64,000 nucleotides of DNA from Mustelus asterias. Taxonomy: Eukaryota. The notes below the pieces were generated by a model, which ran no database searches, was not told the DNA's origin, and worked only from the letters and a program-made list of their open reading frames with translations. Shown one piece after another: positions 29,211-30,419 of the stretch. Position 1 is the first letter of the stretch, and every line of letters begins with the position of its first letter. Made by a program: the position numbers and the translations under genes. The DNA lies in assembly GCF_964213995.1 (NCBI RefSeq), contig NW_027590255.1, positions 248,001 to 312,000 on the forward strand. Reading direction: 5' to 3'.

Positions 29211-29600
29211 TCACTTGCTCTTCGCGGACCCAGCGCTGCTTTTCTTGGGCAGTAGCACGGCCTGGATATTAGGCAGCACCCCGCCCTGAGCCATGGTCAC
29301 CCCTCCCAGCAGCTTGTTGAGCTCCTCGTCGTTGCGGACGGCCAGCTGCAGGTGTCTGGGGATGATGCGGGTCTTCTTGTTGTCCCGGGCCACGTTCCCG
29401 GCCAGCTCCAGGATTTCAGCGGTCAGATACTCGAGCACAGCAGCCAGATAGACCGGGGCTCCGGCACCCACACGCTCAGCATAGTTGCCCTTTCTCAGGA
29501 GCCTGTGAACACGGCCCACCGGGAACTGCAGTCCAGCCCGGGAGGAGCGAGACTTGGCCTTGGCCCGAGCTTTCCCGCCGCTCTTTCCTCTTCCAGACAT
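29211..29600 (-). CDS. H2A: Histone H2A, 129 aa; ORF intact but native promoter and 5' UTR absent
   Basis: [19 protein letters not shown]...; two unusual substitutions (GNVARD for GNAARD, VTMAQ for VTIAQ). Confidence 0.93.
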
Positions 29601-30263
29601 TTTTTTTGTACTTTTCTAATTCAATCAAATTCAATTCAGAGTCTCAACAAGTTGAGACATTTCCGATCCAGGCTGACAAGACAGGGCAAGCGACCAAATT
29701 ACCCTGTCCTGGGCCCGATCTACATGAGCCAAGCTGAATGGAGTTGGGGGAGGTTCCTCCTCCAAGGCATGAGCTCATTTGCATCTTAGCCAAAAGGCCG
29801 AGATGCCGCTTTTAAAAATTGCTTCACGGGCGGCACGGTAGCAAAGTGATTAGCACTGCTGCTTCACAGCTCCAGGGTCCCGGGTTCGATTCCTGACTCG
29901 GGTCACTGTCTGTGTGGAGTTTGTACATTCTCCTCGTGTCTGCGTGGGTTTCCTCCGGGTGCTCCGGTTTCCTCCCACAGTCCAAAGATGTGCGGGTTAG
30001 GTTGATTGGCCAGGTTAAAAAAAATTGCCCCTTAGAGTCCTGGGATGCGTAGGTTAGAGGGATTAGCGGGTAAAACATGTGGGGGTAGGGCCTGGGTGGG
30101 ATTGTGGTCGGTGCAGACTCGATGGGCCGAATGGCCTCCTTCTGCACTGTAGGGTTTCTATGATTCTATATGAAACATATGAAGCTTCAATGTAACCTAA
30201 TGACCTTAACCAAGTGCAGCATCCAATCCATACTTGATCTTAGCCAAAAGGCCGAGAAGCGAT
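29601..30263 (-). mobile_element. U2 snRNA-headed poly(A) retroposon, copy 1 (interrupted by an HE1 SINE)
   Basis: Starts ATCGCTTCTCGGCCTTTTGGCTAAGATCAAGT (U2 nt 1-32). Second U2-like hairpin at 29781-29806. A-tail runs into the H2A ATG. Aligns end-to-end with 59528-59851. Confidence 0.85.
29828..30168 (+). mobile_element. HE1-like V-SINE, full length, young
   Basis: Near-identical to 11513-11843. Confidence 0.92.
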
Positions 30264-30419
30264 TGAAAAGATGTGCGGGTTAGGTGGATTGGCCGTGCTA
30301 AATTGTCCCTTAGTGTCCTGGGATGCATAGTTTAGATGGATTTGCGGGATAACTATGTGGGGTTACGGGGATAGTTACGGGGTTACGGTGGATAGTCAGA
30401 GATTCTGTAGATAGTTGAA

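Follow-up and report, generated by a model that had tools for sequence, protein, structure and literature searches.

A U2-headed retroposon at the start codon of a shark histone H2A gene, with an upstream deletion and a probably silent H2A clade carried alongside H3 and H4

The window, by which we mean the whole 64,000-nucleotide stretch of Mustelus asterias DNA analysed here (contig NW_027590255.1, positions 248,001 to 312,000), holds a histone unit comprising H1, H4, H3 and H2A genes (Table 1). The H2A ATG lies at 29600 on the minus strand and is directly adjoined by the A7 tail of a U2-headed retroposon, which the initial annotation had described as replacing the entire promoter and 5' UTR of the gene. 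Judged as a replication-dependent H2A gene, this copy and its relatives with the same junction lack the TATA/CCAAT promoter and the short leader, and retain the 3' stem-loop together with the downstream element. The stem-loop region scores 41.2 bits against Rfam Histone3 (29141-29185) and, with the H3/H4 flank also in place, bears out the earlier view that this is the genomic gene rather than a processed copy. A tRNA gene with anticodon CAG (Leu) is positioned between H1 and H4 within the duplicated unit (25672-25754), and three weaker tRNA-like matches occur elsewhere in the window (1995-2084, 22756-22827 and 50601-50676).

Table 1. Coordinates of the H2A unit and of the features at its 5' junction (window positions)
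Feature	Position	Strand	Remark
H1 gene of H2A's unit	24429..25094	+	
H4 gene of H2A's unit	26371..26682	+	
H3 gene of H2A's unit	28037..28447	+	convergent with H2A
Histone 3' stem-loop (29165-29180) and purine-rich downstream element	29136..29185	-	
H2A CDS	29211..29600	-	129 aa, open; A69V and I102M (mature numbering)
U2-headed retroposon, 3' part	29601..29826	-	second U2-like hairpin, octamer, body, A7 tail
A7 tail	29601-29607	-	last two A may be native bases before ATG
Octamer within element	29777-29784		184 bp upstream of H2A start (-184)
Second U2-like hairpin of element	29781-29806		overlaps octamer
SINE, 344 bp, nested in U2-headed element	29827..30170	+	antisense to H2A
U2-headed retroposon, 5' part	30171..30263	-	U2-derived head 30230-30263
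3-nt filler at 5' junction	30264..30266	-	left end of 1158-1180 bp promoter deletion
106-bp SINE remnant	30267..30372	+	normal paralogs' SINE at about -1266 to -1161, 94-97% identity
Second-deletion scar	30373..30387	.	866-867 bp lost; short filler repeating both flanks
Upstream DNA colinear with normal H2A paralogs	30387..31847	.	about 95%; to about 39800 against paralog L064

The element measures 325 bp without its nested SINE, and the window copy spans 663 bp because the 344-bp SINE is nested in it; this SINE, which points away from H2A, is private to the window copy (1 of 13 copies with the junction). Both the nested SINE and the SINE piece on the far side of the element are, we assume, HE1 or HE1-like. 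The U2 head in the window is 5 bases shorter than in 11 other aligned copies and matches Rfam U2 from 30263 to 30230 with 37.6 bits (E 2.2e-5), which is below the gathering score of 46. A TSD was absent at the H2A junction and a TATA box was absent within 400 nt of the H2A start, both as tested on the paralog L004, with the flanks for the TSD also inspected against the window; the absence of both a TSD and a histone promoter had been reported for the window copy. A further, more diverged copy of the U2-headed element resides in the window at 59528-59849.

To define what was lost, we took as the empty site four normal paralogs (L061-L064) that do not carry the element. Upstream colinearity with these paralogs is about 95%, interrupted by two gaps only. 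In the first, the interval from -1160 (or -1182) to -3 is lost, amounting to 1158-1180 bp, with a 3-nt filler and the element found instead; in the second, situated 100 bp farther upstream, the interval from -2133 to -1266 is lost (866-867 bp) and is replaced by about 15 nt repeating both flanks. Fillers that repeat their flanks may point to polymerase-theta end joining. The first lost interval held TTATAA at -66, CCAAT at -87, three reverse CCAAT motifs and two GC boxes, and the 5' UTR lay within it as well. The insertion with a deletion that had been suspected from the window alone is evident as missing DNA, mapped to the base, and is accompanied by a second deletion that had not been part of that proposal. 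The normal paralogs carry a complete SINE some 1.2 kb ahead of the ATG. The far-side piece is the leftover of this SINE between the two gaps; it had been described as an HE1 SINE piece truncated at its 5' end, but it is cut at both ends.

The junction between element and H2A ATG recurs at 13 loci on 8 contigs, including 5 loci on C85 and 2 on C223, and all 13 copies display an A-run of 7-9 with the A of the ATG included. In comparison, the normal H2A leader has 87 matches in the genome, showing that other H2A copies normally do not have this element upstream, and of about 95 H2A copies of this leader type seen in the assembly, 13 are promoter-less. An assembly artefact at the junction has a negligible probability, given that the 13 copies are diverged from one another and that 5 of them are on one contig. 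A processed pseudogene was ruled out by the retained genomic downstream flank and by the retained H3 and H4. Both scars are found together in 13/13 junction loci, and among the 40 best matches the second scar is full-length only at these 13, with no normal copy there. Since both scars are common to all 13 loci, the comparison shows, at the level of the assembled sequence, a single origin of the junction followed by duplication of multi-kb H1/H4/H3/H2A units. The window's upstream DNA is common to all 11 junction copies compared, extending over at least 2.9 kb and in several over 5-9 kb. We distinguish about 7 lineages among the 13 copies, with a mean divergence of 1.8% in the element and 2.7% downstream. 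In a tree that took in 91/99 rows, all 13 junction rows lay to one side of a weakly supported branch (58/88), a result that neither shows nor rejects monophyly; the upstream flank divergence of L084 (12-14%) seemed inflated by misalignment and was not used. Haplotype duplicates may be included among copies that are nearly identical yet lie on different contigs (L002/L003, L005-L007 and L004/L084 being the near-identical groups), and the mosaic sharing of the alleles A12V, V107L, P117H and I102M suggests gene conversion.

Searches of the assembly with the element yielded 1680 and 1342 first-look candidates, with the best 40 scored in each, while an exact 21-mer of the element, representing one variant only, was counted 104 times. 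Of 31 dispersed loci, 2 had no usable tail; in the other 29, a strict TSD with 7-22 nt matched was present in 12, compared with a mean of 0.14 and a maximum of 3 upon shuffled pairing of the flanks; this strict test misses several imperfect TSDs visible by eye, and it replaced a looser criterion (22/31), which was set aside on account of chance matches. A pyrimidine precedes 11/12 of the strict TSDs. At 19/29 dispersed loci the A-run is followed by T (binomial p 0.0015 vs. flank composition), and at 4/29 by TG, so that an A-tail running into an ATG is an ordinary junction for this family; its preference for such A-to-T junctions would account for the tail meeting the ATG of H2A. The 3' junction at H2A fits the family pattern Y/A(A)T (the slash marking the site of joining), albeit a short motif. 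A search of the assembly with the 3' end for a partner LINE gave only short copies among the best 40 scored.

Tandem arrays were seen at 9/29 dispersed loci. Arrays of up to 7 units, with the same TSD between units, are found at L029 (C2:53486255-53489487), L013 and L025, the units being 85-95% identical to the reference, as in repeated insertion at one site. Several units in L025, L029, L014 and L023 have a different stretch after the U2 part of the head, one unit of L029 has many A-to-G differences in its head, and L191 has an inverted piece of the element head after its 3' TSD.

With respect to how the promoter was lost, we favor a route in which insertion and promoter deletion took place in the same event, and we consider this one-step route probable. 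We surmise that a putative LINE enzyme nicked at GC/AAATG, a site fitting the junction preference of the family, that the T's facing the native AA served as primer on the poly(A) of the element RNA, and that a break 1.2 kb upstream took up the far end of the cDNA; the second deletion, with its filler repeating both flanks, probably arose in the course of the same repair. The same dead clade could have been reached in two steps, by a normal insertion into the upstream SINE with a TSD of 15-24 nt and a later deletion joining the A-tail to the AA before the ATG via A microhomology. Consistent with two steps, the 5' flank could be a TSD beginning at Y/AA, the family has inserted at the same SINE motif at 4-5 other loci with TSDs of 6-20 nt (L213, L214, L216 and L028 among them), and the second deletion 100 bp away looks independent. 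On the other hand, the breakpoint must then fall within a tail of 7-10 nt and also on a site fitting the insertion preference, and, as the SINE covers 4.5% of the window, a few matches per motif are expected in the absence of a hot spot. As for intermediates, an element with a TSD at an H2A start had 0 matches in this assembly, and an element in the SINE at the H2A-upstream motif had 4 matches, none of them on histone contigs. We thus view the two-step route as unlikely. Still less likely, in our estimation, is that the family inserted twice, once into the SINE and once at the ATG, and that recombination of these two copies removed the intervening DNA. Both flanks do fit insertion sites and deletions are known to arise when repeats recombine, as stated in the available text of one report (PMC4859970), but this scheme calls for two insertions no more than 1.2 kb apart, neither of the forms with a single insertion turned up, and a three-part comparison, albeit of low power, returned the same nearest dispersed copies for the 5' and middle thirds, with no clear mosaic. 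Because the one- and two-step routes end in the same promoter-less clade, our confidence in the clade is higher than in the one-step route: a promoter-less H2A pseudogene clade that hitch-hikes with its neighbors is, from these comparisons, very likely.

We compared the coding regions of the junction copies with those of normal-leader copies. For this purpose, 86/87 leader matches were retrieved, 4 were dropped (L160, not H2A; L108, a lone fragment on C9; L159 and L167, divergent H2A on C5) and 82 were used; an earlier normal set, made up of the 26 best matches to the window CDS, over-represented intact copies, for which reason this leader-based set took its place. The ORF is broken in 8/13 junction copies vs. 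4/82 normal-leader copies (Fisher p 4e-6, with copies that are not independent), and a lesion is present in 5/7 junction lineages. Frameshifting indels account for 7 of the 8 broken ORFs and a 21-nt deletion for the other; L012, in which two deletions restore the frame, is counted among the indel-bearing ORFs. The remaining 5/13, the window's included, keep a 129-aa ORF, and only L004 among the junction copies encodes an H2A equal to that of a normal copy. Two normally invariant residues had been noted as changed in the window: A69V indeed occurs in 6/13 junction copies and in 0/82 normal-leader copies, but I102M, likewise present, is also found in 3/82 normal-leader copies. Within residues 16-118, diversity at 0-fold sites is 1.4-1.5% in junction copies vs. 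0.40% in normal copies (about 3.5-fold), with similar diversity at 4-fold sites (2.4-2.6% vs. 2.1%); flank diversity of the normal copies (9.8%) seemed inflated by misalignment and was not used. The distinct changes in the clade number 13 non-synonymous and 12 synonymous, which is below the neutral expectation (p 0.02), while clade-private changes number 9 and 8, respectively (p 0.09-0.19). Taken together, the junction H2A ORF would appear not to be under the purifying selection of a working gene, with some residual deficit of amino-acid changes. The initial annotation's suggestion of an incipient pseudogene thus holds as to the pseudogene, but neither incipient nor single describes a 13-copy clade that is 2-3% diverged. 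The protein of L008 and L009 is identical to NCBI XP_078058300.1, 'histone H2A-like [Mustelus asterias]', an automatic protein-coding model; the H2A proteins of the window and L011 were not found in the NCBI protein collection, which says little.

The neighboring genes served as internal controls. H3 and H4 are downstream in every junction unit examined; the H3 protein is identical in 11/13 junction units and the H4 protein in 10/12 complete copies, and H1 is found within 6.1 kb in 8/13 units, being truncated in 2 of those 8. Broken ORFs amount to 3/25 for H3/H4 of the junction units vs. 8/13 for H2A (p 0.003). As judged by these counts, the comparison shows that the excess of ORF breaks and of core amino-acid changes is limited to the H2A of the units.

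We also weighed the contrary reading, in which the U2 retroposon now serves an amplified H2A subfamily as promoter or leader, U2-headed RNAs ending at the stem-loop, or a variant H2A, are produced from some of the five full-length copies, and the slight shortage of amino-acid changes is due to genuine constraint. Were it so, such an RNA would be a chimera of two non-polyadenylated RNA classes. The junction has after all been amplified to 13 copies, 5 ORFs are full-length, non-synonymous changes are fewer than neutral, and the stem-loop is retained unchanged in 13/13 junction copies, for which the chance under neutrality is about 0.25 by a rough estimate. The octamer at -184 might also seem to favor a promoter role, in that an octamer-like site is found at -113 in 41/86 normal promoters. 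The perfect octamer is indeed supplied by the element, as had been remarked, but it is present in 47/52 dispersed units and is, on that count, a standard component of the family with no gain specific to this locus; moreover, it is mutated in 3/13 junction copies (L008-L010), two of them with full ORFs. Further arguing against a U2-headed transcript are the missing TATA box, the 8-10 upstream ATGs with short ORFs that all stop before the H2A start (3 copies), the lack of any common variant residue among full-length copies and, in the window copy, a nested SINE oriented away from H2A. In crocodilian SINEU elements, the available text likewise gives no promoter-like sequence or recognised internal promoter and suggests transcription from flanking DNA (Kojima 2015, PMC4494074). 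We therefore consider a chimeric U2-leader-H2A transcript, which had been offered as one outcome of the rearrangement, to be highly improbable.

Our main reading, to which we assign a probability of about two in three on the strength of genomic comparison, is that a retroposon insertion at the start of H2A deleted about 1.2 kb upstream, and that the likely silent gene was copied with H3 and H4 to 13 loci, where it is decaying. The junction unit was duplicated in multi-kb H1/H4/H3/H2A blocks. Its H2A copies are presumably not expressed and would persist because H3 and H4 of the same unit are useful, with their decay probably slowed by occasional gene conversion in which normal copies are the donors. 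Replication-dependent histone genes undergo birth-and-death turnover, with near-identical copies, some of them dead, spread by duplication. The shark H2A copies conform to this in being many, near-identical, duplicated and in part dead, and depart from its usual form in that one dated lesion marks a whole dead H2A clade in units with conserved H3/H4.

The mechanism is already known, and the shark H2A case is a new instance of it, an ordinary gene death in a duplicated cluster. Retrotransposition-mediated target-site deletion is reportedly described by Callinan et al. 2005. For LINE-1, Alu and SVA, the available texts of two reports describe such deletions as having an endonuclease site and poly(A), no TSD and a loss of target DNA ranging from a few bp to 1 Mb (PMC4859970, PMC10760644). 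As far as those texts go, the shark insert is similar in being poly(A)-tailed and without a TSD, with 1158-1180 bp upstream lost, an amount inside that range, and may be similar in lying at a preferred site; it differs in being U2-headed with a complete head, in the second deletion alongside and in the amplification of the product by segmental duplication. The element itself resembles crocodilian SINEU-1/-2/-3, as these are characterized in the available text, by its U2-derived head, a repeated U2 piece, a length of <500 bp, a poly(A) tail, TSDs that only part of the copies have, and tandem copies separated by TSD (PMC4494074). SINEU is reported there only in crocodilians and with a preference for Mariner-N4_AMi (Kojima 2015, PMC4494074); unlike SINEU, no Mariner-N4_AMi-type target was seen for the shark element, and the likeness is one of design. 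No report of a shark U2-headed SINE, of the H2A junction or of histone pseudogenes made by SINE insertion was found in the literature searched, which covered few subscription journals and no Repbase. The element family is hence the more novel object than the promoter-deletion mechanism. The locus nevertheless provides a well-controlled natural case of insertion-associated promoter deletion outside mammals, with empty-site paralogs and with H3/H4 as internal controls, and it illustrates how the duplication of whole units can raise the number of dead histone genes. Annotation lists at least one of the promoter-less copies as a protein-coding model, so that active histone genes would be fewer than annotation-based counts suggest. 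The shared scar can be used to follow duplication and gene conversion through the histone cluster.

Several observations on other histone genes were made along the way. L33H is common in normal-leader H2A copies (L113, L118, L122, L125 and others; also L051 and L052) and, occurring mostly in a second H2A type with a different C-terminal tail, is a possible shark H2A variant. R29C and E92K are common to three normal-promoter copies (L126, L128 and L157), with P48L in two; E92 we take to be an acidic-patch residue. L115 and L119 carry a SINE insertion between the H2A stop and the stem-loop, immediately behind the stop; in L138 and L140 the stop codon is lost and H2A runs on into the 3' UTR, reaching 136 aa; and foreign sequence cuts the H2A stem-loop of L058 in its T-run. 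Finally, the H2B locus at 51975-53060 constitutes a second promoter-side lesion in the same window as the H2A junction: the H2B gene retains a promoter with TATA, octamer-like and CCAAT motifs, and on its other side an ORF at 52661-52969 has a short direct repeat and an A-run at its flanks.
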